Shown one piece after another: positions 10,813-43,708 of a stretch of 64,000 nt of DNA. Every line of letters starts with the position of its first letter. Position 1 is the first letter of the stretch. Origin of the DNA: an uncultured Thermoplasmatales archaeon (GTDB lineage Archaea > Thermoplasmatota > Penumbrarchaeia > Penumbrarchaeales > Penumbrarchaeaceae). The notes under the pieces were generated by a model. That model did no database searches. It had not been told where the DNA came from and saw nothing but the letters and a program-made list of their open reading frames with translations. The stretch is taken from the NCBI GenBank assembly GCA_964445525.1, contig CAYULA010000002.1, forward strand, positions 34,576 through 98,575. Direction: 5' to 3'. The position numbers and the translations under genes were made by a program.

Positions 10813-11784
10813 ATGGTAGTAGATGAAGACCCCGGCATGATTCGGAAGAAGCAGAGGTCCGACAGGGTCCAGATAGAGGAGACAACCACCTGTCCGGAGT
10901 GCGGAAGCGATCACATAATACGGGATTACGAGAGGGGGGAACTGGTTTGCGGGGACTGCGGTATTGTGATCAACGATCTCCAGATAGACATGGGCCCCGA
11001 ATGGAGAGCCTTCGACTCTGTCCAGACCGAACAGAGGGCAAGAACGGGAGCCCCGATGACCCTTACGATACACGACAAGGGTCTTTCAACGGAGATAGGC
11101 TGGAAGAACAAGGATTCCTACGGAAAGTCCATTCCCACCAGGAACAGGGCCCAGATGTACCGGCTCAGGAAATGGCAGAGAAGGATAAGGGTTTCCAACG
11201 CAACAGAGAGAAACCTGGCCTTCGCCCTTTCGGAACTTGACAGGATGGCGGCGGGAATCGGTCTTCCCCGGAATGTCAGGGAGACCGCCGCGAGGATCTA
11301 CAGGAACGCGGTGAACAAGAACCTGATCAGGGGAAGGTCCATAGAGGGAGTTGTGGCCTCCTCGATCTATGCGGCCTGCAGGCAGTGCAACGTTCCGAGG
11401 ACCCTGGACGAGATCGCATCGGCCTCGAGGGTGGGAAGGAAGGAGATCGGGAGAACCTACCGGTTCATGACAAGGGAGCTCGACATGAGGCTCATGCCCA
11501 CATCACCTCAGGATTATATCTCCAGGTTCTGCTCGGAGCTGAAGCTCTCGGGAGAGACCCAGACAAAGACAATGGAGATCCTCAAGCAGGCGGACGAGAT
11601 GGAGATAACCTCGGGCAGAGGACCCACCGGCATGGCGGCAGCGGCGATCTACATAGCCTCCATAATGACAAACGAGAGGAGGACCCAGAGAGAGGTTGCG
11701 GATGTTGCCGGTGTGACGGAGGTCACCATCAGGAACCGCTACAAGGAGCTTGCGGACAAACTCGGCATCGATCTTGAGATCTGA
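10813..11784 (+). CDS. tfb: Transcription initiation factor TFB (TFIIB homologue)
   Basis: N-terminal zinc ribbon [24 protein letters not shown], followed by two cyclin-fold repeats (...[14 protein letters not shown]..., ...[17 protein letters not shown]...). Confidence 0.9.
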
Positions 11785-14470: not shown

Positions 14471-15373
14471 TTAAAACATGAGTTCCGAGGACCTCAACAG
14501 ATCCAGCATTAGATCGATGAAAGGTCTGAGATTGCCATCAACCTGTCCAATTTCAAGACAGCTGTAGTATTCCATTTTCCTTCTGCTGGGGATGTTGACC
14601 ATGGGATAACCCTTCGAATGGAGGATGAAATTCATCAGGAGCCTGCCCACCCTTCCGTTTCCATCCACGAAGGGATGAACTGTCTCGAATCCCATGTGGA
14701 AATATGATGCAAGCACAAGCGGGTGCAGTACATGCCTGTTTCTGGTATACCACGAGAGGAGCTCCTTCATATCCTCGGGTACATCCTGTGGAGACGGGGG
14801 CATCCATTCCACCCCCCTGATGAATACCTGCACATCCCTGTATCTCCCGATCTGTCCTTTCAGATCCTCCCGGATCGCATCCTCCATTACAAGTTCATGA
14901 AGCTTCATTATCAGGTCCCTTGACATATCTCCTCTGTAAGCCAGGATGAAATCGAATCCCTTCTTGTGATTGATAACCTCATTTATCTCCCTGAGGTGCT
15001 TGGCCCGAGGTGTGATGCCTTCGAAGAGCAGACCCGCTGTTTCCTGGAGGGTCAATGTATTTCCCTCTATTGCGGTGGAATCGTGGGTGAACCTGGAAAG
15101 GAATGTCTCGTATCTGTTCATCCAGTTCTCCTTTGGAAGTGTGGAATACCTCGATTTTATCATCCCAAGTTCCTCGATCTCCGATCCCGAAAGCAGGTTT
15201 TCGAGGACGTGAAGCTCCCTGTCGGCTTCTCTTTCAAGCCTTTCCCGCTCTTTATCGGAGAGATCCTTTCCGAGGTAGATTCTGTTCTTTTTCACCTTTC
15301 CCTCCCTCCTTCTGGACCTGACCCTGTAGTAATATGACGACCCGTTCCTTTCCTTTCTTTCCGTATAGCTCAT
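14471..15373 (-). CDS. Fic/Doc-family protein (putative AMPylator) with an intramolecular inhibitory helix
   Basis: Canonical Fic active-site motif HPFVDGNGRVGR. An upstream (S/T)xxxE(G/N) inhibitory motif STAIEGN, which is the class II / intramolecular arrangement. Confidence 0.8.
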   Translation of the reverse strand: MSYTERKERNGSSYYYRVRSRRREGKVKKNRIYLGKDLSDKERERLEREADRELHVLENLLSGSEIEELGMIKSRYSTLPKENWMNRYETFLSRFTHDSTAIEGNTLTLQETAGLLFEGITPRAKHLREINEVINHKKGFDFILAYRGDMSRDLIMKLHELVMEDAIREDLKGQIGRYRDVQVFIRGVEWMPPSPQDVPEDMKELLSWYTRNRHVLHPLVLASYFHMGFETVHPFVDGNGRVGRLLMNFILHSKGYPMVNIPSRRKMEYYSCLEIGQVDGNLRPFIDLMLDLLRSSELMF

Positions 15374-15515
15374 GATAATTGTACGTCCACACTGATAGAT
15401 ATTTATTTTGGTTTGTGGACGTACAATGTACGTCTACATTAACAAAGTAAAAACGAACCATTGTAGTCGTACACATCCAAAATATCAATTTAGAGGTTTG
15501 ACGGTACCCGAATTC

Positions 15516-16070
15516 ATGCCGACAGATGATCCTTATGAGGTTCTCGGGGTCCCCAGGGATGCCGATATCACGGAGATCAGGAAAGCCTACAAGAACCTGG
15601 CAAGGAAGCTCCATCCCGACAAGAGCGGATCCAATGTCAGGGCGCTTGAACAGATGAAGCTTGTCAATGAAGCATATGCGATACTTTCTAACAAGAGAGC
15701 AAGGGACATCCTGGAAGACGAGGAAGACTGGAAATGCAATGCTACGGAGGAAACCAGGGAGAAAGTGTGGAAGGAGTACTCCAAACAGGTTGAGGAATAC
15801 TACCAGCAGGTGCAGTCCTACCTTGAGACCGAGCTCTCCTCAATAAAAAGGGAAAGGGAGAAGCTCTCCGGGATCGAATTGAAGCTCAGAAAAAGAGAGG
15901 AAGAACTGAAAAAAAGGGAATCGGAGATTGAAAGCAGTATCAAAAAAAGAGAGGATTACATTTCCAGGAAGGAATCGGAGCTGGACGAGCTCCTGATGCT
16001 GATCTCACGCTCCAATTCCATCGTGGTTGATCTGGCCCAGTCCTCCAAATCCCTGAGAAACAGGAAATAA
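15516..16070 (+). CDS. J-domain (DnaJ-like) protein with a coiled-coil C-terminus. It has no zinc-finger or substrate-binding domains.
   Basis: DPYEVLGVPRDADITEIRKAYKNLARKLHPDK carries the HPD motif. The start is at Met 15516 (MPTDDPYE). The C-terminal half is charged and coiled-coil-like. Confidence 0.7.
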   Translation: MPTDDPYEVLGVPRDADITEIRKAYKNLARKLHPDKSGSNVRALEQMKLVNEAYAILSNKRARDILEDEEDWKCNATEETREKVWKEYSKQVEEYYQQVQSYLETELSSIKREREKLSGIELKLRKREEELKKRESEIESSIKKREDYISRKESELDELLMLISRSNSIVVDLAQSSKSLRNRK

Positions 16071-16072
16071 CA

Positions 16073-16543
16073 TCATTCGATCTGTGCATAAACCTCTGTC
16101 AGGATCTCTTCGGGGGGAACCTCACTCGGGTCGTTGAGATAATATTCCCTGTATGGACCTTTCACTTCCTTTCCGTTTTCTTTCATCCATCCGAACAACC
16201 TGTTGTATGAATCCCCCACCTTCTCGTAGGGTCCCTTGTGGATGGTCTTTACCATCTTCACCCGTGGCAGTTCGTAATGTTTGATCTCGTCTGTCTCCAG
16301 GATTTTTCCGGTCACGGGGATTGCCACTTCGAGGTCCGCATTATTGTTTTTCATTGCCTCCTCAACCGCTTCCATCGTGAGTTCGTGGCAGAGGAATACG
16401 GGAGGTCCGGCGACCTCCATTCCGCTGGTCATAACGTGTTCGAACAACTTTGGAATCAGCTTCCCGGTGTCCTGGTAAGCTCCCCTGGCTCTCATTCCCA
16501 CAACCTTTAACGGTTCAAGTTCAACGATCTCGATATCTTCCAT
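16073..16543 (-). CDS. GyrI-like / AraC-effector-binding-domain small-molecule-binding protein
   Basis: Two tandem half-domains, each with a 'G..Y' core (...VGMRARGAYQD... and ...VKTIHKGPYEKVGDSYNRLFGWM...). Confidence 0.5.
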   Translation of the reverse strand: MEDIEIVELEPLKVVGMRARGAYQDTGKLIPKLFEHVMTSGMEVAGPPVFLCHELTMEAVEEAMKNNNADLEVAIPVTGKILETDEIKHYELPRVKMVKTIHKGPYEKVGDSYNRLFGWMKENGKEVKGPYREYYLNDPSEVPPEEILTEVYAQIE

Positions 16544-16654
16544 TTATTTCACCTCACTCCTCTCAAAGGATCCGGATATTTGAACCGAACCTCGGGAGTG
16601 AGAGGTGCATAAACGTGGAAATAAAGGTAGGTTTGCAGTTTCACCCGGGTGAGA

Positions 16655-17995
16655 CTACATCCAGTGTACGCTGTTGATGAACTCGTCCCACCGGGTGTCC
16701 TGACTGAACTTGATATCCTCGTAGGCGGGATTGTAAGACGAGGACCTGTATGGAAGGTAGATGGATACCCCGTGGGCGTCAGGATGACCTCCGTCCTCGT
16801 AGGTATTTCTGTACAGCATCACCAGGTCCTCGACAGCGTTCATTATATCCTGAGAATGGGAGGTCCTCAAGGTACCCGCTGTGGGTTTGGACAGCTGAAA
16901 GGCGAAATCGTAGATGTCGTAGTTTGTATATGTGGCCTGGCCGATCCAATCCATCTGGTGGGAGAAGTATTCGGTGTACAGTTTCGGGTCCTGATATTCC
17001 GGGTGCCCTATCACGGTGTTTATGAGGATTCCCTGGTTTATGGTCTGGCCGATCCCTGTCATCTTTGGGAGCAGCTCTGATGCCAGGGCATCCAGGGCCT
17101 CCACAAGGGGTACGACATTACTCAGGTTGAATATTCCGAAGACATCGGAATATCCCTGCTTGGGAATGTAAGGAGGTGCGGTCCAGGGTCCGTAGGGCTT
17201 GAACGTTTCCCCCATCACGAGTGCGAACTCTTCTGCGGACATTTTCGGATTATCGGAAAGCTCCTCCCAGCATGCGTCGTACTGCCAGTTCCCCGGTCTG
17301 TAATCATTGTTCTCGGGTTCCGCCTCACCACCCCATCCGTAGGTTGATCCTCCCACGAAGTAGCTGCAGGAATCCCTGACCTCGTAGGCGAACTCCACCA
17401 TCCCCACAAGACATGCTTCCGTGGAAAATACGTCCACTTTCCGACCCAGGTGATCGCTGAAAGATTCCATTGTCCTGCCAATTTCAGGAAGGTCCAGATG
17501 ATCTGCGGAGAGAACGTCCCAGCACATTCCCCTCCAGCCTCCGCCGTGATTTACGAGGTGGACATTGTATCTCTTGGCCGGATAGTTGTCCGCTCCCCAT
17601 TTCAGGAACTTGAGAAGCTGGTCTCCATCGCCGGTATTGAGTTCATTATGCCCCCATTCGGGGTCGATATCGGTAAGGTTGAGGTATCTTGACCCGCCGT
17701 GCTGCAGTTCTATGAGCTGGGTGTCACCTTCCAGTTCCTTGTCCAGGATAATAATGACGTTTGTCAATGGGTTGTCCGGGACCTTCTCCAGGAAATGAAG
17801 GTTGCACAGGCCCATGTTCCACTCGCCGAGGTCCCCTTCCATGCACATCCACATCAATGTGGTCCATTCGGCCTCGCCGGTGGTCTCTTCTCCGTCGCTC
17901 CCGATTTCCCTGCTGGATGTGGTCAGGAGCAGAGCTCCCGCAACCATGAAAATAGCCACAGCGACAGCTCCGATCGCAATATGCTGTCTCTTCAT
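16655..17995 (-). CDS. Secreted clostripain-like cysteine peptidase (family C11)
   Basis: Signal/anchor at the N-terminus. Catalytic His motif NVHLVNHGGGWRGMCWD and Cys motif VFSTEACLVGM, spaced as in C11 peptidases. Confidence 0.55.
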   Translation of the reverse strand: MKRQHIAIGAVAVAIFMVAGALLLTTSSREIGSDGEETTGEAEWTTLMWMCMEGDLGEWNMGLCNLHFLEKVPDNPLTNVIIILDKELEGDTQLIELQHGGSRYLNLTDIDPEWGHNELNTGDGDQLLKFLKWGADNYPAKRYNVHLVNHGGGWRGMCWDVLSADHLDLPEIGRTMESFSDHLGRKVDVFSTEACLVGMVEFAYEVRDSCSYFVGGSTYGWGGEAEPENNDYRPGNWQYDACWEELSDNPKMSAEEFALVMGETFKPYGPWTAPPYIPKQGYSDVFGIFNLSNVVPLVEALDALASELLPKMTGIGQTINQGILINTVIGHPEYQDPKLYTEYFSHQMDWIGQATYTNYDIYDFAFQLSKPTAGTLRTSHSQDIMNAVEDLVMLYRNTYEDGGHPDAHGVSIYLPYRSSSYNPAYEDIKFSQDTRWDEFINSVHWM

Positions 17996-31382: not shown

Positions 31383-33971
31383 ATGGATACAAAGAACAAT
31401 AGAAAAATGGGGATGGCAGCTTCTGTCATTGTCATATTGATGGGAATGGCAGCCCTGGGATTATTCGTTCCGGGCCAGGCCAACGGAGATGCGGTATGGG
31501 ATGGCCATCTGGTCAGTTCTGCATCGGTGGACCCTACATGGGTCTACAGCACCTCAACGGTTGATGTCAACATATCATATTCACTTGCTCCCGAGGATAT
31601 GAATCTGGAGCTTTCAAATCTGACCATAACCGTTGTGGAAGTAAGTTCGGGAGTCCTTCCGATGCCGATCTATAACTGGAACAGGACAGGAGACGGCGGA
31701 ATGCCGGACAATCCTTATACCTGGTCCCTGGACGGAAGCCAGGGAATAGGTGATTGGATCATCAACGTTACCGCGGATTATCACAACTCCACTCTGGGAG
31801 ATGATCATTACGGTTCCGAAGAGATCCATTTTCAGGTGATCGACGGAACCCACATCATACAGGATATATCCGCCGAACCCAAAATAGTGAAAAACAACGG
31901 AATGGACATGGTCAACATGAGTTTCATGTTCAACAGGAACTTCGACGAGATGGACATGGACAGGACAGAGGCCATGTTCTTCCACGTGGATACCATGTCA
32001 TGGGTCGATGACGAGACCCTGATGGTTCCCGAGCCCGCACCCGAAAATATCACAGACGGATTCCACAACTCATCTGTCTGGTCACACATGACCATACCCG
32101 AGGACCTCCCTGTGGGCGAATACAAGTTCTACTTCAACTTCTTCGACAGGTGGGGATACAATGAATCCATAAACGAGACCGTCTTCGAGGTCATCTGGAA
32201 AGAGCTCCCGCCGGTGATGGTGAACGATACCATCTACATACACGAGGATGGATTCGAGATAGTCGATCTCGATGATCACTTCGAGGATGTCAACGGACAG
32301 GAGCTGATGTATTACATCAACATGTCTCAATTCGAGAACCTGATGATAACCTGGGAAGATGAGGCAGAAAACCATATCAACGTGACCGCCGCCGAGAACT
32401 ATTTCGGCACGGAGACCTTTGACCTCAATGTCACAGATGGAATAGACATGCCCGGTCACAACGTGACCTTCACCATGACGGTCAATGTCATGCCTGTGGA
32501 GGATCCGTTGATGCCGGCAGAGGACCTCACCATCGAGGTCAACGAGGTCACCAAGGAAGCCCTGTTCAATCCCCAGGATCTCTTCTACGATCCTGACGGC
32601 CCCGCCGAATTCACGGTATCGCTCGGCACCGAGATGGTGAACGTCTCCGGCAACATGACCGAGATGCCCGCATGGACCTGGACGGATGGCAACTTCTCCA
32701 TTGCGATCAACGAGACCGACAACACCGTTGGAACAGCGATCATATTGGAGGACATGGAAGAGGGAATGGCAAACTTCCCAATCTATGCGTGGATGAACGA
32801 ATCCATCGTGCTCATGGAAGAGGCAACCGTGATGGTCCAGGAGGTCAACGACGTCCCGATGCCCCTGAACGACACCTTAACGATGTTCAAGAACGAACCC
32901 TTCACAGGGAATCTCTCGGAACTGTTCATGGACCCCGACAGCGAGATGCTGAACTTCACGGTCAATGACACCATGGCCGAGAATGTTGCGGTGGAGTATG
33001 ACTGGATGACCCATACGCTGACGATCACTCCTATATTGAATTGGACAGGAACCACCACCTTCATGGTTAATGCCACAGACGGTATCGATTATCAGGAATA
33101 CACCATGAACGTTGAGGTGATCCTCAGGTCCTACGAGGTCAGCGGAACCATAACCTTCGAGGAGGTTGCCGGTGTCGATGTGAACCTCTCAAACGTCACC
33201 ATGATGATAGGTGAGACCGAGGTGGTCCTGGCGGATGACGGAACCTTCTCGGTCATGATCGAAGAGGGAGACTACGAAGTCACTCTCGAGATACCTGATG
33301 AACTCACCTATTCCGAGGCTGATGAGAGGTCCGGTTACGAGATCCCGACCCTGGATCCCATCAATCTTACAGCGGATGAGACCTACGATGTGTCTGTTAC
33401 CTACATGGAATACAATGCATCAGCCGGGGAGGCCTCCTGGGATGATCTCGACTTCGAGAATGTGGAGTTCGACGACGACGATGACCTCATGGTCATGCTT
33501 CCCGTCATGGAGGGCACAGAGAACTACACCGGATGGGACACATTCGTTGTCAAGCTGGTCATAAGGGAGTCAGATGACGAGGAGCTCAACTTCACCATGA
33601 CCTGGGACGACGATAACGACAGGTTCACCGTCACCCTAACTGACGAGGACCTGGAGGACCTTGGTGATGGCAAGAAGGAATATTACTTCATGAACGAGGA
33701 CGGGACCCTCACATCGGATGAGGAGAAGTACGAGTTCAAGAGCGAGGACGAGAACGCAGGTCCCATGACCATCATAATTCTCGTCGCATTGATCCTTCTG
33801 GTGCTCATTGCCCTTATCTTCATCATGAGGAAGCCTTCAGAAGAGGACTTCGATGAGGAAGAGGAAGATGAGGAGGAAGAGGGGAGGACCTGCCCCGGAT
33901 GCGGTGAGACCGTAACCGACGATGAAGCAGAGGAATGCCCCTACTGCGGTGAGGACCTCGAAGAAGAGTAA
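31383..33971 (+). CDS. Large (862 aa) acidic, Met/Asn-rich secreted protein with a C-terminal TM anchor and a cytoplasmic CxxC...CxxC zinc-ribbon tail
   Basis: Signal peptide (MGMAASVIVILMGMAALGLFVPGQA). Many NxT/S sequons. TM PMTIIILVALILLVLIALIFIM. Tail ...EEEDEEEEGRTCPGCGETVTDDEAEECPYCGEDLEEE. Confidence 0.55.
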   Translation: MDTKNNRKMGMAASVIVILMGMAALGLFVPGQANGDAVWDGHLVSSASVDPTWVYSTSTVDVNISYSLAPEDMNLELSNLTITVVEVSSGVLPMPIYNWNRTGDGGMPDNPYTWSLDGSQGIGDWIINVTADYHNSTLGDDHYGSEEIHFQVIDGTHIIQDISAEPKIVKNNGMDMVNMSFMFNRNFDEMDMDRTEAMFFHVDTMSWVDDETLMVPEPAPENITDGFHNSSVWSHMTIPEDLPVGEYKFYFNFFDRWGYNESINETVFEVIWKELPPVMVNDTIYIHEDGFEIVDLDDHFEDVNGQELMYYINMSQFENLMITWEDEAENHINVTAAENYFGTETFDLNVTDGIDMPGHNVTFTMTVNVMPVEDPLMPAEDLTIEVNEVTKEALFNPQDLFYDPDGPAEFTVSLGTEMVNVSGNMTEMPAWTWTDGNFSIAINETDNTVGTAIILEDMEEGMANFPIYAWMNESIVLMEEATVMVQEVNDVPMPLNDTLTMFKNEPFTGNLSELFMDPDSEMLNFTVNDTMAENVAVEYDWMTHTLTITPILNWTGTTTFMVNATDGIDYQEYTMNVEVILRSYEVSGTITFEEVAGVDVNLSNVTMMIGETEVVLADDGTFSVMIEEGDYEVTLEIPDELTYSEADERSGYEIPTLDPINLTADETYDVSVTYMEYNASAGEASWDDLDFENVEFDDDDDLMVMLPVMEGTENYTGWDTFVVKLVIRESDDEELNFTMTWDDDNDRFTVTLTDEDLEDLGDGKKEYYFMNEDGTLTSDEEKYEFKSEDENAGPMTIIILVALILLVLIALIFIMRKPSEEDFDEEEEDEEEEGRTCPGCGETVTDDEAEECPYCGEDLEEE

Positions 33972-34125: not shown

Positions 34126-37100
34126 ATGAAACGAGAGGTATTCGCGGTACTGATTACATTCGGATTGTTATTGGTAACTGGAGAATCAGTTTTCGGTATA
34201 ATTGCCGAAAATGAGGATATTGAACCCATGATTCCAGAATTTGATTTTCAGTTTTCAGGAGGAAATGGGACCAAAATCAATCCATACAAAATCTCGAACA
34301 TAACGGAGCTCCAATGGATGGGAAATACGTCGAATCTGGATAAACATTTCATTTTTATAAACGATATCAATGCATCCGCAACTTTAACCTGGAATGGAGG
34401 AAATGGATTCGATCCGGTTGGTGATTCAAGCAACCGCTTCGATGGCTCGATTAACGGCAATGGTTACAAAATAATAAATTTATTAATAAACAGATCGAGT
34501 GATGACTTTGTAGGGTTGGTAGGTGATCTTGGAGTAACAGGATATCTCTCCAATATCACAATGCTAAATGCCTCGATAAATGGCGAGGACATTTGCGGAA
34601 TTCTTGCTGGCAGATCTTTCAAAGGAACAATTCATAATTGCTCCGTAAACGGATCGGTGAAAGGATCAACAAATATCGGAGGTTTGGTTGGCAGAAACCA
34701 TGAAGGAAAAATTTCAAATTGCTTTTCTGGTTGTAATGTAATCGGGAGGGGACAGAAAATTGGAGGTATGGTAGGTTATAATGAAGATGCAAAAACTTTT
34801 GAAAACTGTAGTTCAAGATCTTATGTTAAGGGAACTGAAAATGTTGGAGGATTGATTGGAGATAATGAAGGATCATTTATTGAATGGTCGAATTCAACAT
34901 CCATGGTGATTGGAACCGGAGCTGTGGGAGGTTTAATCGGGTATAATCATTTTTATTCAAGAATTACTAATTGTCATTCGAGATTTGAAATAAATTCCAC
35001 AAGAGATAATATTGGAGGACTTATCGGGAAGAATCAAAACAACTGTCCAATATTCCACAGTGGTTCAATTGGAAAAATAAATGGTAGGAATCAACTTGGA
35101 GGAATTGCAGGTTACAACAATCAAAAAATCATCAATTCATCCTCAGAGGTTGAAATAACAGGTCAAAGTATGATTGGAGGTTTAGTAGGAGAAAATCATG
35201 GAGAAATAAGGAATTGCACGGCTGATGCTGAAATTGAAGGTGTCCAAAGATTAGGAGGATTGGTTGGTGATGGTAGGGACAAATCGATTTATGATAGTAT
35301 ATCTTATGGAAATGTTACAGGAACCACTTACTATATCGGAGGATTTGTAGGTGGTATTATTTCGATTGATGTAATCAATTGTCGATCATATGCTAATGTT
35401 AATTCAACAGGAGAATATGTTGGTGGATTTGCGGGTTATCCAAGTTTATCTAATATAAAGAATAGTTTATCCGATTGTGAAGTAAAGGGAGAAACCAACG
35501 TGGGAGGTTTTTTAGGTGTAAACTCTTATTGTATCATTGAAAATTGTCATTCATTTGGATGGGTTAACAGTACAAAGGATTATACTGGCGGTTTCATAGG
35601 ATTGAATTTAGGTACGATATCAAATTGTTCCTCCCTTTCAAATGTTAACGGAAAGAAATCCACTGGAGGTTTAATTGGAAAGAACAATAATAATTATGAA
35701 ATTAAGGAATGTTTCTCCAATGGTAATGTTACAGGAACCGATTACATAGGTGGTTTAATTGGTGAGAATTACGGTAAAATCTTGAATTGTTATTCTCAAG
35801 GTGGTGTGAATGGACCTATGAATAAATTGGCATATTTTGGTGGTTTATTAGGATATAATAACGGTAGAGTAACAAATTCGTATTCCACAGGAAAAGTAAC
35901 CGGAACATTTAGGAAAGGATTCATTGGTGATAATTACGGAACAGTTCAAAATAGCTTTTGGGACTATGAATCTTCAGGAGTTACATATAGTGACGGTGGA
36001 ACAGGAAAAAACTCTTCCGAGATGAAATCTCAGAACACATTTTCATCAGCAGGATGGGATTTCAACGAAACCTGGTACATTATTGAAGATGAAACCTATC
36101 CAATGTTATCCAATAATTTAATGGATTATTCCGTTCCGGTATTTCTTGATGATTATACAAATATTTCAGGGTCTACCGGGACCAATTTTACCTTTAACAT
36201 TAGTGTAACAGATAATATTGGTTTAAGTTTTGTAATGGTAGAATTCTGGTATGGCAATGGTTCGCATTTAGAAAAACAATTGAAGCTCAATAATACATAT
36301 AAAACCTTTACTGAATTGCCCGTTAATTCCACTGATACCCTATATTATTTTTTTCACGCAAGAGATTTCAAGGGAAATACTAATTCTACACCAATAAAAA
36401 ATGTAACAATCAATGATATTTTGATCCCGTTTTTTAGTAATGAAACAACACAAAATAATGGTACGACCGGTGATCAATTTCAATTCAAGATATATGCATA
36501 TGACAATATCGGTATCCAGAACGTATATTTGGAATATTGGTCAAACTTCACAAAGAAAACTAATGTTTCCATGGAGGAAAACGGTTATTTTATCAAAAAT
36601 ATACTTTTACCCTCCAATGTAACAAATATCTCTTATCAGTTCCATGCAGTGGATTTATCTTTCAATTGGAAAAGCACAGATGTAAAAACTTTATTAGTAT
36701 TGGATAACGACAAACCTCTATTTGGTAAGGACCTCACTGCTGATAACTGGACAACAGGAGATATTGTCGAATTTTCCATTATTGTACAGGATAATATCAA
36801 TGTCAATAGTGTCAAAATAGAATACTGGTTCGGTTCGGGACCTCGATTCAATGAATCCATGGTTTTCGATTCTGGATCCTATACCTTCGATCTCATGATC
36901 CCCCCGGATTCGCTTGATCAGCTTCACTACATCTTCCATGCGGTGGATACCTCGGGCAACTGGAACAGGACCGATCAGATCGATGTGGCTGTTCTGGATG
37001 ATGATAGACCAATCTTTGGTATGGATGGATCTGCGGTTCTGGGAACCACAGGTGAACAGTACCGTTTCGGAATCGGAGTGGTTGACAATATCGGTATCGA

Positions 37101-38634
37101 GGAGGTCAAGGTGGAATACTGGTTCGGAGAAGGGCCTCACACCAATGTCACAATGACCGGGGGCGGTCCTTTTTCCCACATTGCCGATATACCACTGGAT
37201 TCTTCAGAAACACTGCATTACATCTTCCACGCATCGGATACCTCCGGCAACTGGAACCATACCCCGCAGGTGGATGTGGATATACTTGACAACGATCTGC
37301 CGGCATTCATGGAGGATCTCTCAGATACCACGGCGACAACGGGTGATAATTTCTCTTTCGAGATCGAGGTGACTGACAACATCGGTATCTCCGATGTTTA
37401 CGTGGAGTACTGGTTCGGGACCGGAGACCATAACAATGAATCCATGATTTCAGTGGATTCCTTTGGTTTGAGAATCGAGATCCCATCCGACTCGGTGGAG
37501 AGGCTCAATTACATCTTCCATGCAGTGGATGAATCCGGGAACTGGGCACACACGGACCGGGTGGATATCCAGATCGCAGATAATGACATGCCGGAAATGA
37601 TCGCCGACGAGAGTCCGGACGAAGCTTTTACCGGAGAGGATCTGGAGATAATTATCCGTGCAACCGATAACATCGGGTTGGCAGAGGTCGAACTTATCTG
37701 GATGATCGGATCGGATATTGATGAACAAAGAGTCGATATGGACCTCGAGTCAGGGAATTATGTTCACACCATCCAGGTTCCGGTCGATACGGTTGATCCT
37801 CTCCGGTACGTGATGAGGATAATCGATACCTCGGGTAACATATTCGAATCGGATGAAGCAACCATTACCATAACTGACAGTATATCTCCAACCGTCGATC
37901 CTGTGGATGATATCACTGTTTATGATGGACAGGACCTCGATGTCAATGTAACAGGGTCGGATAATATCGGTATCGCTTCATATTCGTGGGAAGGAGCTCC
38001 CATCGATGCAGATGGTTCCGAACTGAAAGGGATCGTGACAGTTCCGGGTGATCATGATATCACTGTCACCATTTCCGATGAGGAGGGCAATACCGATTCC
38101 ACTACTTTCAGAGTCACGGTTCTTGCGGAGGACCATGACACTGATTCCGACGGCATCCCGGACCTAGTCGAAATGGAGTGGGGCCTCTCCATCGAGGATC
38201 CTTCGGATGGCGAGGAGGATGCAGATAATGACGGGATGTCCAATGCTCTGGAGTATGCGAACGGGACCCTTCCCTTTGATGATGATACCGATGATGACGG
38301 AATGCCGGACGGATGGGAGGACAGCTACGGCCTGGATCCAACGACCTCCTCTTCAGATAACGATGCCGATGGTGACGGCAAGACCGACCTTGAGGAGTAT
38401 CGGGAAGGTACCGATCCTCTGATCAAGGAAAAGGAAGATGACGATGATGGCGGAGGATCCCCGATAGTGATCATTGTGATCATCGCGGTTGTTATCCTCA
38501 TTGCTATCGGTCTTTTGCTGTTTTTCCTTACCAGAAAGAAGGAAGAAAAATTGGAAAATGAGCCCTCCGATGGTCAGGACACATCAGAAAATGCTATTGA
38601 GGATCCAAGAGATGATGAAAATGAAAATCCTTGA
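34126..38634 (+). CDS. Giant (1502 aa) surface protein. An N-terminal array of ~25-aa GLUG-type repeats, eight ~100-aa Ig-like repeats, thrombospondin-type-3-like Asp-rich calcium-binding repeats, a C-terminal TM anchor and a short acidic tail.
   Basis: GLUG-like periodicity (...NIGGLVGRNHEGKISNCFSGCNVIGRGQKIGGMVGYN... repeated ~25 times). The repeated module ...DNIGI..V..EYWFG.G... occurs eight times. DTDSDGIPD, DADNDGMSN, DTDDDGMPDGWEDSYGLDP and DNDADGDGKTDLEEY are also present. TM IVIIVIIAVVILIAIGLLLFFL. Confidence 0.6.
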   Translation: MKREVFAVLITFGLLLVTGESVFGIIAENEDIEPMIPEFDFQFSGGNGTKINPYKISNITELQWMGNTSNLDKHFIFINDINASATLTWNGGNGFDPVGDSSNRFDGSINGNGYKIINLLINRSSDDFVGLVGDLGVTGYLSNITMLNASINGEDICGILAGRSFKGTIHNCSVNGSVKGSTNIGGLVGRNHEGKISNCFSGCNVIGRGQKIGGMVGYNEDAKTFENCSSRSYVKGTENVGGLIGDNEGSFIEWSNSTSMVIGTGAVGGLIGYNHFYSRITNCHSRFEINSTRDNIGGLIGKNQNNCPIFHSGSIGKINGRNQLGGIAGYNNQKIINSSSEVEITGQSMIGGLVGENHGEIRNCTADAEIEGVQRLGGLVGDGRDKSIYDSISYGNVTGTTYYIGGFVGGIISIDVINCRSYANVNSTGEYVGGFAGYPSLSNIKNSLSDCEVKGETNVGGFLGVNSYCIIENCHSFGWVNSTKDYTGGFIGLNLGTISNCSSLSNVNGKKSTGGLIGKNNNNYEIKECFSNGNVTGTDYIGGLIGENYGKILNCYSQGGVNGPMNKLAYFGGLLGYNNGRVTNSYSTGKVTGTFRKGFIGDNYGTVQNSFWDYESSGVTYSDGGTGKNSSEMKSQNTFSSAGWDFNETWYIIEDETYPMLSNNLMDYSVPVFLDDYTNISGSTGTNFTFNISVTDNIGLSFVMVEFWYGNGSHLEKQLKLNNTYKTFTELPVNSTDTLYYFFHARDFKGNTNSTPIKNVTINDILIPFFSNETTQNNGTTGDQFQFKIYAYDNIGIQNVYLEYWSNFTKKTNVSMEENGYFIKNILLPSNVTNISYQFHAVDLSFNWKSTDVKTLLVLDNDKPLFGKDLTADNWTTGDIVEFSIIVQDNINVNSVKIEYWFGSGPRFNESMVFDSGSYTFDLMIPPDSLDQLHYIFHAVDTSGNWNRTDQIDVAVLDDDRPIFGMDGSAVLGTTGEQYRFGIGVVDNIGIEEVKVEYWFGEGPHTNVTMTGGGPFSHIADIPLDSSETLHYIFHASDTSGNWNHTPQVDVDILDNDLPAFMEDLSDTTATTGDNFSFEIEVTDNIGISDVYVEYWFGTGDHNNESMISVDSFGLRIEIPSDSVERLNYIFHAVDESGNWAHTDRVDIQIADNDMPEMIADESPDEAFTGEDLEIIIRATDNIGLAEVELIWMIGSDIDEQRVDMDLESGNYVHTIQVPVDTVDPLRYVMRIIDTSGNIFESDEATITITDSISPTVDPVDDITVYDGQDLDVNVTGSDNIGIASYSWEGAPIDADGSELKGIVTVPGDHDITVTISDEEGNTDSTTFRVTVLAEDHDTDSDGIPDLVEMEWGLSIEDPSDGEEDADNDGMSNALEYANGTLPFDDDTDDDGMPDGWEDSYGLDPTTSSSDNDADGDGKTDLEEYREGTDPLIKEKEDDDDGGGSPIVIIVIIAVVILIAIGLLLFFLTRKKEEKLENEPSDGQDTSENAIEDPRDDENENP

Positions 38635-38651: not shown

Positions 38652-40040
38652 TCATCTGGGGATCCAGCCGATCCTCTCATATCCGTTGATAACCCTTTCA
38701 AGGTCCTCCACGGTGATTCCAAGGACCTTTTCCTCTTTCATCAAGGATATCGCATCCTCGGTGAATCCCTCTCTCGCCATTATGAAGGCATACTCGGTCC
38801 TTTTCCGGTTATGCCAATCGATTTTCTCCATGTTATTCAGGAGGTCTCTTACAACATCCGGACCCGTTGGTCTGTTCCTCCACTTGATCTCGCCGACCAG
38901 AATTGTCTTTTCCTTCCTGGAATAGAATAACGAATCCACCTCGTTTCCGGACCTGTCCCACCATGATCCGCTCCCATCCTGAACGAATGGAATGGATCCG
39001 TTCTCTTCCAGAAATGTCCTTATCACCTTCTCTATCCCTCTTCCAATGGCATCGAAGAAGGTATTTTTGTCTATCTTGGCTATCCCGTTTTTAAATAGTT
39101 CCATTTTGGGATAACATACTGAGAACCATAACTGGAAGAAGGGATCATCTATCACATATCTGACATGTTTTTCCTTTCCGAAAATGGGCCTGTCCCTTTT
39201 CACAAGTCTCATGTCCATGAGATTATTGATGTATTTGGGAAGCATCTGGACCTCCATTCCGAGCTGGTCCGCTATCATGGTAGGTCCGAACTTGCCCCTG
39301 GATATGACCTCGAGTATCGAGAAATAGGTATCCCAGGAATTGCCGAATTCCTGGATAAGGACATTCTCCCCCTCCGGTAAAAATATCGATCCGGGTGAAA
39401 ATATACTCTTTCTGATATCATCTATATTTTTCTTGTATCTGATCAATTCGAGATATCTGGGGACCCCTCCCACAAGTGAATAGGCTTCCATTGCGTCCCT
39501 GAAGGAGAATCCGGAATCGGTCAGGATACTCACCGAATCCTCCATCGCAAGAGGCCTCAGCTCCAGGAGGTGAGTGCTTCTACCGAAGAGGGGTTCTTTC
39601 CTGTCCTCGAATATCTTCTTCATCAGACTTATGTGGGAACCATCGACTATCAGCCTCAGCCTTCTCTCGTCCTTGTACTTGTCTATGAGCATCTGCAGAT
39701 CCGAGAATGCCCCTTCGTCCATGAATTTCAGATTGGAGAGCTCGTCAAGAAAAATGATCTTCCCATCCAGTCTGAACAGATATTCGAAGAATTCCTCCAA
39801 GGAACCGAAGGTCGGGGAATAGCCCGTTTGTTCCTTTAGGGACCTCGACATCTGATCCAGAGCCAGACTGAGTCTTTTCCTCGGGATGAAGAATTCAAGG
39901 AGGTCGGGACCTTTGAGGGCCTCCCTGATCAGTCGTGTTTTCCCGATCCTTCTTCTTCCGGTGATCACAAAAAAGCAGTGATCTCTGGACATTCCTTCCC
40001 GTATCATCGATGTCTCTTCATCCCTGTCGAAGAACCTCAT
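38652..40040 (-). CDS. Archaeal ATPase (Arch_ATPase / ATPase_2 family) fused to a C-terminal DUF234 domain
   Basis: Walker A FFVITGRRRIGKT, a Walker B-like IIFLDE, and the characteristic ~460-aa length with a DUF234-type C-terminus (...LVGEIKWRNRP...). Confidence 0.7.
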   Translation of the reverse strand: MRFFDRDEETSMIREGMSRDHCFFVITGRRRIGKTRLIREALKGPDLLEFFIPRKRLSLALDQMSRSLKEQTGYSPTFGSLEEFFEYLFRLDGKIIFLDELSNLKFMDEGAFSDLQMLIDKYKDERRLRLIVDGSHISLMKKIFEDRKEPLFGRSTHLLELRPLAMEDSVSILTDSGFSFRDAMEAYSLVGGVPRYLELIRYKKNIDDIRKSIFSPGSIFLPEGENVLIQEFGNSWDTYFSILEVISRGKFGPTMIADQLGMEVQMLPKYINNLMDMRLVKRDRPIFGKEKHVRYVIDDPFFQLWFSVCYPKMELFKNGIAKIDKNTFFDAIGRGIEKVIRTFLEENGSIPFVQDGSGSWWDRSGNEVDSLFYSRKEKTILVGEIKWRNRPTGPDVVRDLLNNMEKIDWHNRKRTEYAFIMAREGFTEDAISLMKEEKVLGITVEDLERVINGYERIGWIPR

Positions 40041-40214
40041 GTTTAAACCAAAACAGGATTATCCTGAAATGGTTTATAACTTTCCTCGATAATCCTGTCT
40101 TATGAATGAATTATCCCGAAACCCAATTCTGCATTTCAATAAATCCGAATTATATCGCTTCTTATTTATTCCAAGAGATTTTTCAAGTTTCCGGGATCAT
40201 TCAGGTGGACCTCC

Positions 40215-41237
40215 ATGCTGGTGGAAGCTGTAGATGACGACATCAAGAGGGATGTCTGGAAGAGGGACGAGTTCACGTGCCGCTACTGCGGGAGGACCGT
40301 TGCATGGGAGGATGTGAACCTTGTTTTGGATGTGCAGCCGGAAAAAGGAGGAGAGGTTGCCCCCTCAAATATGCTCACTGTCTGCTCCACCTGTTTGACC
40401 GAGGGAAAGACAGCCCCCGTAGAGGAGAAGGACAAGCAGAGACTTCTGGGAATAATCAGAGAGCTCGTCTGCTACACCGATCTCACAGACGAGGTAATAT
40501 TCGAGATGGACCACGAGCAGGAGATCGAGAGGCTCCTTGCGAAGATGCAGGCCCTCAAGGAGGATAATCAGAGGCTTTCTGCCGCAATTCAGCAGAGGGA
40601 GAGGCTTGCAATAGGTTACAAGCAGAAGATGGACAGGGTCCTCAAGGATATGGAAAACTTGAAGAGAAGACAGGAGTCGGATATAGAACTGAGAGTGGAT
40701 GAGGGCACCAGAAAGGTAATCCTGTCCATGATCGAGACCCTTGACGATATCGACAGGGCCATCCAGGAAGCAAGGAAGGATAACGGAGTCAAGGAGGTTC
40801 AAAATATCATTTCCGGCCTGGGAATGATAAGGAAAGCCTTGATGGACAGGCTGAGGTCACAGAGTGTCCAGAAACTGGACCCCAAGGGGGAGATATTCGA
40901 TCCGAACTATCACGAAGCGGTATCCTCGGTGATGAATAGAAAGGTCCCCAAGGGAACGGTCCTCGAGGTCCGGCAGCCGGGTTTCATCCGGGGCCACCAT
41001 CTTCTCAGACCGGCCATGGTGATCATATCCAAGGGTGGTAAAAAACCCGAAAGGAAAGAACCCGAGAAACTGGAGGAGTTCGAGCTGGACGAGGAGACAG
41101 ATGAGATAGAGGTCCTCCCCCTGGAACCCTGGACGCCGGGCAGTAACGATACCGAATTCGTGGTCAAGAAACCAAAGAAGAAGAAAAGGGTTTCAAAACG
41201 GAAGAAAAATACTCAATCCAAGGGCGATAAAACATAA
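40215..41237 (+). CDS. grpE: GrpE nucleotide-exchange factor with an N-terminal degenerate HNH-like zinc ribbon and a Lys-rich C-terminal tail
   Basis: The GrpE C-terminal domain is clear (...GMIRKALMDRL...GEIFDPNYHEAVSSV...VLEVRQPGFIRGHHLLRPAMVIISKG), preceded by a long coiled coil. The N-terminus WKRDEFTCRYCGR...LDVQPEKGG...NMLTVCSTC resembles an HNH zinc finger with the catalytic His replaced (DVQ for DHI). Confidence 0.7.
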   Translation: MLVEAVDDDIKRDVWKRDEFTCRYCGRTVAWEDVNLVLDVQPEKGGEVAPSNMLTVCSTCLTEGKTAPVEEKDKQRLLGIIRELVCYTDLTDEVIFEMDHEQEIERLLAKMQALKEDNQRLSAAIQQRERLAIGYKQKMDRVLKDMENLKRRQESDIELRVDEGTRKVILSMIETLDDIDRAIQEARKDNGVKEVQNIISGLGMIRKALMDRLRSQSVQKLDPKGEIFDPNYHEAVSSVMNRKVPKGTVLEVRQPGFIRGHHLLRPAMVIISKGGKKPERKEPEKLEEFELDEETDEIEVLPLEPWTPGSNDTEFVVKKPKKKKRVSKRKKNTQSKGDKT

Positions 41238-41269
41238 CAATTTACAACAAGGAATGGTATGCCCGTTCG

Positions 41270-43708
41270 TTGGCTCTGAAGGATCACGGATTGACTGCCC
41301 GGGAAGGGATAATGCTCCATCTTCTGGAATGCGATATCTACAGAAATGACGATATTGTGCCGGAGTCAGTGACACAGCCGGGAATCGCCAGGGCATTGGA
41401 CACTGACAGGAGCTATGTTTCCTTCGTCCTGTCGCAGATGGAGAGCAATGATACGGTGATAAACAAGCTGGGCAGGATCCAGGGGGGAAAGAGGAGAAGG
41501 AAGGTCTACTTCCTAACGGAGGAAGGGCTGAAATATGCCCAAGATATCAGGACCCTGATCTCCGGAATCCGGATTGCATACAAGAGCAAGGGGAAGGAAC
41601 TCAACAATCCCCTTGGATATGTCGCTTCCGAGGCAGGCCTCTCACTGACCACCATGGTGGTGAACATGGATGCCTCATCGGTTTTCGACCTTGACGATAT
41701 CACCCTTCTCGGCAGGACCAAAAAGAGATCCCCCGGAGGGCCCAGAGGTCCTCCTGTTCCCGATAATTTCAAGGGCAGGAAAAAAGAGATCTCAATTATC
41801 AGGTCCTGGTTGAAGGGAAGCTCCGGCATTCTCCAGGTCAACGGCATCGCGGGAACGGGAAAGACATCACTTGTGGGGAAAGCTCTCGAGGAGGAAATCG
41901 ATCCCGAACTGACCACGATTTACATTCCCGTACCCTCCTGGGGGGATGATTCGTCACTGATGACGAACCTCTCCAGGGAGCTTGAATCGGCAAATAGGTT
42001 GTCACTATCCAGCCTGCAGAAGGAGAAGGGCTCCCTTTCCCTGGATGAGTTCGCGAGAGGCCTCGAACAGGAGATATCAAGGAAATCCATGCTCCTGAAC
42101 CTGGATGACGTTCACAATCTTATCGGAAAGGGAAGGAAAAGCAAGGTCCTCGATCTGATCATCAGTATGTCCGTAAAGGACCTTAAGACCATTCTGATCT
42201 CCAGGAAGCCTCTCGAGCTTGACCCCAGGTTATCAATGAGATCGGATCCCCCCCTAATCCTGGAGGTGGCTGGATTGAAGAAGAACGATGTCAGAAGCCT
42301 TTTCGAGGACCACGATCTCGATTTCAACAATGATATCTATTCCAGAACCTCCGGTCATCCCCTCTACGTGAATCTTATTATCCATCATCACTGTCAGGGA
42401 GATGCGCTTGAACCCGGAAAGAGCATAAGGACATTCATCCGAAACGAGGTCCTGGAATGTCTCAACAGAACGGAGATGGACCTTCTGGATATCATGTCCG
42501 TTTTCAGGGTCCCAGTATCCAGGGAGAGGCTGTTCGATCTGGATGCCGGGGACCTTCTGATATCCGAGTCGGGCCTGCAGAGCCTGATGGGAGGGGGGAT
42601 ACTGACCGGAGGGGAGGGGTCCATCGTGATCCACCAGCTTATTAAGGATATTGTTCTCGAGATGATGCCCAAGAGCAGGTCTCTCAGGATACACAGGATC
42701 TTATCGGAACATTACAGGGAGAGGCTGGATCTCCAGACGATGCCGGTAAAGGATGTTTCCGGGAGGATCATCGATCTCAGGGAATACCTGCACCATATCT
42801 GGACCTGCGGAACAATCGGAGAAAGACTCTCCGCAATTTCCGACATGGGAGAGGAGATCATGAGCAGGTCCCTCAATGATGACCTGGAGAGATACAGCAA
42901 GGATATGCTGGATGAGATATCCCGGTCCCATGAAGCGGAATCACTCGATCCATCTCTCATGATCAGGATAATGATCTATCACGGATGGTGCCTGTCCGTC
43001 AGAGGAGAATGGGAAAAGGCCCTTGAAGAATACGACAGGGCCAGGATGAAAGCTGAGGAGATCCCCAGCTGGGACCTGGTTGGCAGATGCCTGAATGCCG
43101 TCGGGACCATACATCTCAGGAGGGGCGATCCCGAAAATGCCAGGGAGCTGATATCGAGGTCCATCGAGTTGATGGATGACAGGCGCACCCTTTGCAAGGC
43201 AAGGTCAAATCTTGCCATAGTACACTGGATGGAGGGACGCCTCGAGGAAGCCCTGGAGGAGGTTGACAGATCCCTGGATCTTGCACTGTATCTGGATGAT
43301 GCCATGGGAGTATCCAGGGGACTGATAAACAAGGGAATAATACTGGCCCAGATGAATGATTTCGAGGGATCGGGTTCCGCTTACGAGAAAGCCCTTGACA
43401 TATGCGAGAGGGAGGGTTTTTCCCAGACATTATCCATAGTACACGACAATCTCGGTGAGATAAGAAGGGAACTGTGTGACCTGGAGGCTTCCAGGAAACA
43501 TTTCGAAAAGAGCCTCTCGCTGGCAGCTGATCTCGGCTTCAGGTGGCAGGTGGCTGAGGCCACCCGGAACCTGGCATCCCTCACGGAGAAGGGACCGAGG
43601 AGAACCGGAATGTTCATGGAGTCCATTGAGATTTTCAGGGGCCTCGGTGACCTGAGAGAGGTCGAGAGGACCGAGGAGATGATGAGGGAGAGTCCCGATA
43701 AGGAATAG
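41270..43708 (+). CDS. STAND-type NTPase: N-terminal winged-helix DNA-binding domain, AAA/NB-ARC-like P-loop ATPase, C-terminal TPR array
   Basis: The N-terminal wHTH-like region is ...DIVPESVTQPGIARALDTDRSYVSFVLSQME.... Walker A GIAGTGKTSLVGKAL. The C-terminal ~300 aa are TPR-like (...ALEEYDRARMKAEE..., ...EEALEEVDRSLDLAL..., ...SAYEKALDICEREG...). Confidence 0.6.
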   Translation: MALKDHGLTAREGIMLHLLECDIYRNDDIVPESVTQPGIARALDTDRSYVSFVLSQMESNDTVINKLGRIQGGKRRRKVYFLTEEGLKYAQDIRTLISGIRIAYKSKGKELNNPLGYVASEAGLSLTTMVVNMDASSVFDLDDITLLGRTKKRSPGGPRGPPVPDNFKGRKKEISIIRSWLKGSSGILQVNGIAGTGKTSLVGKALEEEIDPELTTIYIPVPSWGDDSSLMTNLSRELESANRLSLSSLQKEKGSLSLDEFARGLEQEISRKSMLLNLDDVHNLIGKGRKSKVLDLIISMSVKDLKTILISRKPLELDPRLSMRSDPPLILEVAGLKKNDVRSLFEDHDLDFNNDIYSRTSGHPLYVNLIIHHHCQGDALEPGKSIRTFIRNEVLECLNRTEMDLLDIMSVFRVPVSRERLFDLDAGDLLISESGLQSLMGGGILTGGEGSIVIHQLIKDIVLEMMPKSRSLRIHRILSEHYRERLDLQTMPVKDVSGRIIDLREYLHHIWTCGTIGERLSAISDMGEEIMSRSLNDDLERYSKDMLDEISRSHEAESLDPSLMIRIMIYHGWCLSVRGEWEKALEEYDRARMKAEEIPSWDLVGRCLNAVGTIHLRRGDPENARELISRSIELMDDRRTLCKARSNLAIVHWMEGRLEEALEEVDRSLDLALYLDDAMGVSRGLINKGIILAQMNDFEGSGSAYEKALDICEREGFSQTLSIVHDNLGEIRRELCDLEASRKHFEKSLSLAADLGFRWQVAEATRNLASLTEKGPRRTGMFMESIEIFRGLGDLREVERTEEMMRESPDKE

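Follow-up and report, generated by a model that had tools for sequence, protein, structure and literature searches.

A stretch of 64,000 nucleotides from an uncultured Thermoplasmatales archaeon (assembly GCA_964445525.1, contig CAYULA010000002.1, positions 34,576 to 98,575; hereafter the window) encodes a 340 amino acid protein in which a GrpE domain follows a catalytically dead HNH nuclease domain. This fusion is designated GrpE2 here, and the canonical, dnaK-linked copy of the lineage GrpE1. The reading that we favour, with a probability of around 0.6, is that GrpE2 is a lineage-specific second GrpE of the EX4484-6-type Thermoplasmatota, specialised as an exchange factor for DnaK, and that grpE2 and the genes on either side of it do not form a single system. 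A sequence-only reading of the window had placed three adjacent open reading frames here, an ATPase_2-DUF234 gene, grpE2 and a STAND NTPase gene, and the open reading frame list and Pfam searches bear out their positions and strands and show that their domains are all real.

Domain architecture of GrpE2

The grpE2 gene occupies positions 40215-41237 of the forward strand, stop codon included, and was analysed by Pfam, AlphaFold and Foldseek. Its GrpE domain (residues 111-273, positions 40545-41033) had been claimed to be intact, and it is: the match to Pfam family PF01025 runs from end to end (model positions 6-165 of 165, E = 5e-37, 127.5 bits against a cut-off of 25.8) and the signature residues are kept. 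In 17 diverse members of the family, D145, R152, R181, F228-D229-P230, H233-E234 and V269 are invariant, with N148, D177 and R265-P266-A267 nearly so. The AlphaFold model has the GrpE layout of a long stalk helix, a helical bundle and a beta domain, with predicted local distance difference test (pLDDT) values of 86-97 over residues 101-270, and the first 12 ranks of a Foldseek search are all GrpE structures, including 1DKG, 3A6M, 4ANI, 9BLS and 8GB3. Its NCBIfam equivalog scores, given below, mark GrpE2 as a divergent member of the GrpE family.

The N-terminal residues 1-68 (positions 40215-40418) are of a different origin. Pfam gives weak matches to HNH (0.024) and HNH_5 (0.055) over residues 22-60, the HNH score of 15.2-17.9 bits lying below the cut-off of 21.4. 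When the N-termini of 12 family members were scanned alone, PF01844 was found in 11 and HNH_5 in nine, with a best E-value of 3.6e-06, and a profile built from the same 12 sequences matched the Acidothermus Cas9 HNH domain in the PDB with E = 0.0018, together with IscB, the Gme HNH nickase 4h9d, a group II intron maturase and, at E of about 0.01, DotN/IcmJ. In the full-length AlphaFold model (mean pLDDT 77.6) the N-terminal blocks average 64-85, and ranks 13-29 of the Foldseek search, directly below the GrpE structures, are HNH nucleases: Cas9 HNH domains, 4h9d, CBASS Cap5 and Cas5-HNH. An exhaustive hidden Markov model search of 1.84 billion representative sequences returned 1918 proteins at E<=0.001, and those non-fusion matches that were examined are ordinary HNH proteins with D-H-I-x-P motifs.

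To compare catalytic residues, 20 fusions were aligned with 18 active HNH relatives. The active proteins have D-H at the positions corresponding to residues 37-38 of the window protein in 17 of 18 cases (H-H in the other) and N or H at position 61 in all 18. In window GrpE2 these positions are V37-L38 and L61, with N52 kept. Across the fusions the histidine persists in only five of 20 and the final histidine in only one, and a complete active site is found in none. The four zinc ligands (C22, C25, C57 and C60), by contrast with the catalytic residues, are kept in all 20 tabulated fusions, although one further sequence variant, P0009, has a tyrosine at the C25 position. Mean column identity is 77% over the N-terminal 107 residues and 66% over the whole protein, in slightly different sequence sets. 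Because the zinc module is conserved whilst its catalytic residues are gone, selection seems to have acted on it as a zinc-holding structural module and not as a nuclease.

We therefore agree with the sequence-only reading that the N-terminus is HNH-like and lacks the catalytic residues, a conclusion in which the profile search, PF01844, Foldseek and the residue table concur. Its register requires correction: the loss of catalysis stands, but the alignment of DVQ with DHI is off by one, since D-H falls on V37-L38 rather than on D39-V40. Nor is the segment an ordinary zinc ribbon common in archaeal GrpE proteins; it is, on sequence and model, an HNH-derived Cys4 zinc module, catalytically dead, and no general feature of archaeal GrpE. 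Two distant fusions, each with a precomputed Pfam HNH match, retain different halves of the active site: P0143 reads C-H-I-I-P ... CxxC-Y, with the first histidine kept, and P0287 (L016:1383-2393) reads G-Y-I-L-P ... CxxC-H, with the last histidine kept. This suggests that the HNH domain was active in the ancestor and was inactivated independently in separate branches.

The two domains are joined by a linker (positions 40419-40544), delimited from the model, the alignment with GrpE1 and its invariant columns. It comprises a helix (residues 72-87) common to the GrpE1 of the lineage and then a low-confidence acidic segment with a conserved F96-E97-x-D99 motif. Beyond the GrpE domain lies a C-terminal tail (positions 41034-41234), mostly predicted to be disordered (pLDDT below 50 from residue 285), whose motifs are nonetheless kept in the family; in order, these are SKGGKKP, the acidic LEEFELDEE, LEPWTP and the basic KKPKKKKRVSKRKK. 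GrpE1 carries a similar module, combining an acidic-aromatic with a K-rich segment, in its N-terminal part, and other Thermoplasmatota GrpE proteins have such modules at their ends. Comparison of GrpE1 at L021:6830-7825 and L003:4885-5859 with positions 41070-41234 of the window shows the EEFEF/EEFEL module swapping ends, with EEFEFEFDEDEEE...KKK at the N-terminus of GrpE1 and LEEFELDEE...KKPKKKK at the C-terminus of GrpE2. It is as if the charged module had moved to the C-terminus when the HNH domain took over the N-terminus.

Distribution of the fusion and its dnaK-linked counterpart

Close full-length homologues of GrpE2 are rare, with some nine among 5.8 billion clustered proteins, and a scan of one genome per species identified seven carriers, all Thermoplasmatota metagenome-assembled genomes (MAGs) of EX4484-6 type. 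A word-indexed protein search using a 17-sequence alignment recovered two distant fusions only; it was the exhaustive search of representatives that revealed the family, with 12 or more clusters at 50% identity carrying the dead-HNH::GrpE fusion; those with a named source are all from Thermoplasmatota. A metagenome scan added two loci of ex4484_6 type and three plain HNH genes.

The best non-fusion match to GrpE2 is a protein of GrpE1 type, P0010 (1.8e-31; the next is at 4e-14), whose gene lies directly upstream of an HSP70 gene on the comparison contig L003. GrpE1 and GrpE2 are 32-40% identical, and both have the pre-stalk helix and the SKGGKxRPK segment; these shared features suggest that GrpE was duplicated in this lineage and that one copy then had its N-terminus replaced. 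The clearest evidence for the coexistence of the two forms comes from the related MAG CAWEDU01 (ERZ25039514), which carries the grpE2 fusion on contig_53627 and, on contig_14614, grpE (331 aa), dnaK (716 aa) and a dnaJ fragment, a cluster that was reached through DnaK cluster membership (P0296). The two contigs have a tetranucleotide correlation of 0.98 and GC contents of 45.2% and 44.2%, respectively. L003, a contig of similar tetranucleotide signature, has the same grpE1-dnaK arrangement and shares the MCM-DUF424-grpE-dnaK context with contig_14614. A second such MAG is hinted at by the close accession numbers of HHD15290 (DnaK) and HHD15985 (GrpE2), both labelled 'MAG TPA Euryarchaeota archaeon'. 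Since a related MAG has the fusion and a separate canonical grpE-dnaK-dnaJ cluster, the fusion is not the housekeeping GrpE there.

That grpE2 lies outside the usual grpE-dnaK-dnaJ operon, as had been noted from the window alone, holds across the family: none of the approximately 14 grpE2 loci examined has an adjacent dnaK. Non-fusion GrpE genes of sister lineages do adjoin dnaK, with the DnaK proteins P0038 and P0061 of other Thermoplasmatota providing examples of linkage to a non-HNH GrpE. A tblastn search of the 64-kb window with DnaK of the same lineage as query found no dnaK, as claimed, and the J-domain-only gene reported at positions 15516-16070 (forward strand, ATG at 15516) proved to be real, encoding a protein with a Pfam DnaJ match (3.7e-20), a coiled-coil tail and an intact HPD motif (KLHPDK). 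The J-domain protein would imply an Hsp70 partner in the genome from which the window derives. Its surroundings (positions 14471-17995) comprise genes for a Fic/DOC protein (reverse strand), the J-domain protein itself, a GyrI-like small-molecule-binding protein (reverse) and a clostripain C11 peptidase (reverse); the Fic gene and its J-protein neighbour might together make up a small stress-related or toxin pair.

Two further observations concern these genomes. In CAWEDU01, orf862 (a gene of the grpE2 neighbourhood described below), MCM and dnaJ are broken up or shortened in comparison with their orthologues (L001:4601-7189; L021:3253-5380 and 10829-11326). Frameshifts from the assembly probably account for this, not pseudogenes, so that the absence of single genes from this MAG is to be read with care. 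The DnaK proteins of the window's lineage and of related Thermoplasmatota lineages are 690-956 amino acids long in many proteins (for example L003:6033-8216 and L021:8001-10151). The L003 DnaK has a C-terminal extension with two CPxC...CPxCG zinc ribbons separated by K-rich spacers, and other members have zinc-ribbon Pfam matches. Zinc ribbons at the C-terminus are out of the ordinary in DnaK and may have a bearing on a GrpE2 that carries a zinc module.

Gene neighbourhood and alternative readings

Neighbourhoods were compared in the 12 GrpE2 lineages with visible flanks (handles such as L001). The gene order Redoxin-queA-tgt-orf862-grpE2 is found in EX4484-6-type relatives down to 35% GrpE2 identity (L017), and tblastn detects orf862 in synteny in L001, L002, L004, L008-L012, L017, L022 and L023. 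In the window, orf862 (positions 31383-33971, forward strand) encodes an Ig/cadherin-like protein of 862 amino acids with a C-terminal zinc ribbon (Pfam Big_9, 1.8e-08; Zn_ribbon_3, 1.1e-04). Its 3' end in L002, L004, L009-L011 and L017 forms a strong hairpin followed by a T-run, resembling a terminator. Between 44 and 61 nt before the grpE2 ATG lies a promoter-like element, ATCGCTTCTTATTTATTC (positions 40154-40171, forward strand), which resembles a TFB-recognition element (BRE) and TATA box and is unique in the window; a related ATCGCTTC-TTATWTAT element occurs at the same distance in L001, L012, L005 and L009-L011. With the hairpin of orf862 and this putative promoter both upstream of it, grpE2 appears to be its own transcription unit. 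As a constant upstream neighbour, orf862 was considered as a possible divergent Hsp70, an idea rejected on account of its Ig/cadherin-like and zinc-ribbon content and its own terminator-like hairpin. The distant fusions P0141, P0146 and P0287 sit among other housekeeping genes, and every grpE2 locus has a chromosomal housekeeping context.

Some local features are superimposed on this arrangement. At positions 34126-38634 of the window the GC content falls to 36-42%, against some 50%, and this island encodes a GLUG-repeat surface protein of 1502 amino acids that also has Ig-like repeats and, at its C-terminus, a transmembrane segment. This gene is found between orf862 and grpE2 in the window only, and the island has the appearance of an acquired insertion. 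In another lineage, a Thermoplasmatota MAG (L009:5383-6066), the gene for a type VI secretion Hcp-like protein (T6SS_HCP, 5.1e-24), unexpected in an archaeon, lies a short way downstream of grpE2. An Rfam scan of the window gave no matches.

Downstream of grpE2, at positions 41270-43708 of the forward strand, is the gene for the 812-amino acid STAND protein. The description of this protein as a P-loop NTPase with a TPR sensor holds good: Pfam finds TPR_12 (4e-24), TPR_2 (5e-19) and a weak TPR_MalT, residues 167-311 give sub-threshold matches to AAA_22, ATPase_2 and NB-ARC, and the Walker A (GIAGTGKT) and Walker B (LLNLDD) motifs can be read from its sequence. The N-terminal winged helix-turn-helix (wHTH) that was also proposed is only weakly matched (PadR 0.035, DUF7343 0.032, both below their cut-offs). 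Its closest solved relative is PH0952 (PDB 6mfv; phmmer E = 5.1e-14 over residues 162-467), which classifies it as a PH0952-type STAND. Its TTG/GTG start is conserved, as is the N-terminus among orthologues. Pfam detects no effector domain in the STAND protein and PADLOC no Avs match, nor does PADLOC match GrpE2. The STAND protein is probably a transcription factor.

Could GrpE2 and the STAND protein be a functional pair in the subclade to which the window belongs, the latter controlling grpE2 or its TPR domain reading the LEEFELDEE tail as a signal of proteotoxic stress? The two genes are co-directional and 32-53 nt apart, with no terminator-like site between them, in four of the 12 lineages (the window, L001/L006, L012 and L005), the acidic tail motif is conserved and PH0952-type STAND proteins have been described as ligand-triggered. 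A sigma-70 promoter and terminator scan, whose model is not applicable to an archaeon, likewise found nothing between them. However, the STAND gene is missing from the locus in seven lineages (L004, the ex4484_6 group represented by L022 and L023, L009, L017, L016, L018 and L019/L020), yet L004, the ex4484_6 group and L017 all retain the tail motif. In the remaining lineage (L002/L007) the STAND gene lies 1.3 kb from grpE2 behind two genes, one of them on the other strand in L002. A TATA-like box before the STAND start in L001 and L012 suggests that the gene has its own promoter, and the EEFEL motif lies within the chain and does not form a free C-terminal end. We consider such a pairing unlikely.

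Quite unlikely, too, is that GrpE2 has ceased to work with DnaK altogether and has taken on a new role as a coiled-coil scaffold, its zinc module and basic tail binding to nucleic acid or to some other partner. This would fit with the absence of linkage to dnaK at the examined loci, with scores below the NCBIfam equivalog cut-offs and with the basic C-terminal tail, and HNH-derived domains can keep a DNA-binding surface. Against this, the GrpE signature residues are invariant or nearly so even where identity to the window protein is just 31-40%, which argues for selection on the DnaK-binding fold. By sequence count the zinc module is acidic, with 14 D/E and 8 K/R in residues 1-70 and a net charge of about -6, so nucleic acid binding by this domain is not favoured. 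The basic tail is present, as the sequence-only reading had noted, but it is no special mark of the fusion: dnaK-linked GrpE proteins of the phylum have similar tails, so that charged ends are a trait of Thermoplasmatota GrpE proteins and a fusion-specific function in nucleic acid binding was rejected.

A simpler proposal, that the fusion is the one housekeeping GrpE of its genome, which gained an N-terminal extension in this lineage and whose gene has moved away from dnaK, is in keeping with the intact GrpE domain, the housekeeping context and the lack of dnaK in the window. It is made very unlikely by CAWEDU01, in which a second, canonical grpE adjoins dnaK on a contig of matching genome signature, and by the same grpE1-dnaK arrangement in L003.

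On the other side of grpE2, and divergently transcribed from it, lies the gene for a 462-amino acid protein (positions 38652-40040, reverse strand) with ATPase_2 (3.5e-15), HTH_45 (3.8e-05, below cut-off; a wHTH) and DUF234 (2.5e-10) matches in Pfam. Residues 2-389 of this protein also match the PADLOC candidate PDC-S27 (5.9e-32; model positions 5-418 of 484). An ATPase_2-DUF234 gene is present at the grpE2 locus in only two of the 12 lineages, the window and L001/L006, and in the window it adjoins the low-GC GLUG-repeat gene; it is a sporadic insertion at this locus. For this gene alone a defence flavour is plausible from the match, PDC-S27 itself being a candidate family. The divergent intergenic region just upstream of its start contains a perfect palindrome, CAGGATTATCCTG (positions 40054-40066), and a half-copy, GATAATCCTG (about 40085-40100), and the palindrome is a possible operator.

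The earlier proposal that the three genes form an Avs/STAND-like stress or defence module can point to the PDC-S27 match and to a published account of conflict systems that contain HSP70 and GrpE (Kaur et al. 2020, PMC7159879), but it is extremely improbable. It named a lack of co-occurrence in related genomes as its refutation, and the comparison shows just that: the ATPase_2-DUF234 gene is at the locus in two of 12 lineages and the STAND gene adjacent in four, and apart from the window a single other species (L001/L006) has the complete trio. The synteny of grpE2 is of housekeeping type and fixed down to 35% identity, the STAND protein lacks an effector domain and an Avs match, and the HNH domain is inactive. 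In the GrpE conflict systems described so far, HSP70 and a GTPase are encoded alongside GrpE, and neither is found here.

Proposed function and comparison with known systems

In the scheme that we favour, duplication of the lineage's own GrpE would have given rise to GrpE2, the disordered charged N-terminus of the copy being replaced by an HNH nuclease domain that subsequently lost its active site whilst retaining the four-Cys zinc site. The canonical grpE1-dnaK-dnaJ cluster would have been retained elsewhere in the genome, with grpE2 transcribed alone from a fixed housekeeping position (queA-tgt-orf862-grpE2). The stalk and beta domain of GrpE2 would bind the nucleotide-binding domain of DnaK and drive ADP release, and the acidic zinc module would serve as a docking or regulatory device rather than a nuclease, either binding a partner or sensing heat or oxidation through the zinc site. 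GrpE2 would then be an exchange factor with a specialised task, much as GRPEL2 is alongside GRPEL1 in vertebrates.

Several points weigh against this scheme. The NCBIfam GrpE equivalogs all score below their cut-offs, the best being NF010739 with 109.2 bits against 192, and the N-terminal domain modelled alone reaches only a moderate confidence (pLDDT 67). The binding of GrpE2 to DnaK is a prediction from its fold and signature residues, and the role given to the zinc module is purely hypothetical. DnaK and GrpE1 have been seen in a related MAG and not in the window's own genome, of which 64 kb were read, and a single binned MAG, together with indirect hints, is the basis for placing GrpE1 and GrpE2 in one genome. 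Finally, the short gap between grpE2 and the STAND gene makes a local functional link possible in the four lineages that have it.

A more ambitious version of the favoured scheme, tentative and in our view less likely to be right than wrong, would make GrpE2 the first prokaryotic 'modular' Hsp70 exchange factor, its dead-HNH domain acting as a targeting device or as a zinc-redox switch that steers DnaK to, or gates it for, a certain client or condition. Its partners might include the unusual zinc-ribbon C-terminus of DnaK in this lineage and, within one subclade, the STAND protein encoded next door. If this were true, a BAG-like or GRPEL2-like solution would have evolved independently in archaea from a nuclease domain.

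GrpE2 shares its stalk helix, helical bundle, beta domain and signature residues with E. coli GrpE (1DKG) and with the GrpE1 of its own lineage. It differs from both at its ends. A disordered N-terminus is described as a conserved architecture of GrpE-like proteins across kingdoms in a 2025 review that makes no mention of zinc (PMC12987570), whereas GrpE2 has a folded, HNH-derived zinc domain in place of the disordered N-terminus of canonical GrpE. In GrpE1 the charged low-complexity module is N-terminal and the gene lies beside dnaK; in GrpE2 the module is C-terminal and dnaK is never adjacent. Full-text literature searches returned no GrpE with a folded zinc or HNH domain, and the archaeal DnaK-system papers searched contained no passage on GrpE paralogues or fusions. 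GrpE2 is thus a dead-HNH GrpE paralogue that is real and conserved and has apparently gone undescribed, rather than a new system.

With HNH nucleases such as the Cas9 HNH domains and 4h9d, GrpE2 has in common both the fold and the W-x-R-D-x-F-x-CxxCG ... N ... CxxC framework. The nucleases keep D-H and the last N/H, whereas the GrpE2 family has both replaced and no complete active site. The HNH-like DotN serves the Dot/Icm system of Legionella as an adaptor that binds zinc but has no catalytic activity. What is of interest in GrpE2 is that a nuclease domain has been stripped of catalysis and re-used on a chaperone co-factor whilst the canonical co-factor has been kept alongside, making the GrpE1/GrpE2 pair a natural experiment on specialisation of the Hsp70 cycle in prokaryotes.

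Other comparisons concern the neighbourhood. In the GAP1-N2 GTPase conflict systems, found mainly in Actinobacteria and Firmicutes, GrpE occurs with an adjacent HSP70 and GTPase (Kaur et al. 2020, PMC7159879); as with grpE2, the GrpE gene is outside the housekeeping operon, but adjacent HSP70 and GTPase genes are not seen at grpE2 loci. PH0952 of Pyrococcus horikoshii (6MFV), described by its authors as a predicted transcription factor (PDB 6MFV paper), combines a nucleotide-binding oligomerisation domain (NOD) with a TPR sensor as the window STAND protein does, although the two are distant relatives and the wHTH of the window protein is weakly detected. The grpE2 locus also counsels caution in treating gene neighbours as modules in poorly sampled lineages, adjacency here being due partly to shared ancestry and partly to local insertion.

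Zinc, redox control and chaperones meet in Ruc, a redox-regulated zinc-ribbon chaperone reported from M. tuberculosis, the paper on which also mentions GrpE (PMC7448276). In the BAG family, an exchange domain is joined to a module of unrelated kind, which links Hsp70 with one particular process (PMC12987570). The parallel is one of analogy only, the BAG exchange fold being unrelated, BAG proteins being eukaryotic and a targeting role for the dead HNH of GrpE2 being hypothetical. Vertebrate mitochondria offer another parallel, for which two papers (PMC11500471; PMC12987570) describe an essential co-chaperone, GRPEL1, and a stress-regulated GRPEL2 in one compartment, redox regulation of the latter being reported in the title of PMC6089081. 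GRPEL1 and GRPEL2 are likewise a pair of GrpE paralogues, produced by a duplication independent of the archaeal one. GRPEL2 has no added domain, however, whereas GrpE2, whose function is predicted here, has recruited a whole zinc-binding domain.

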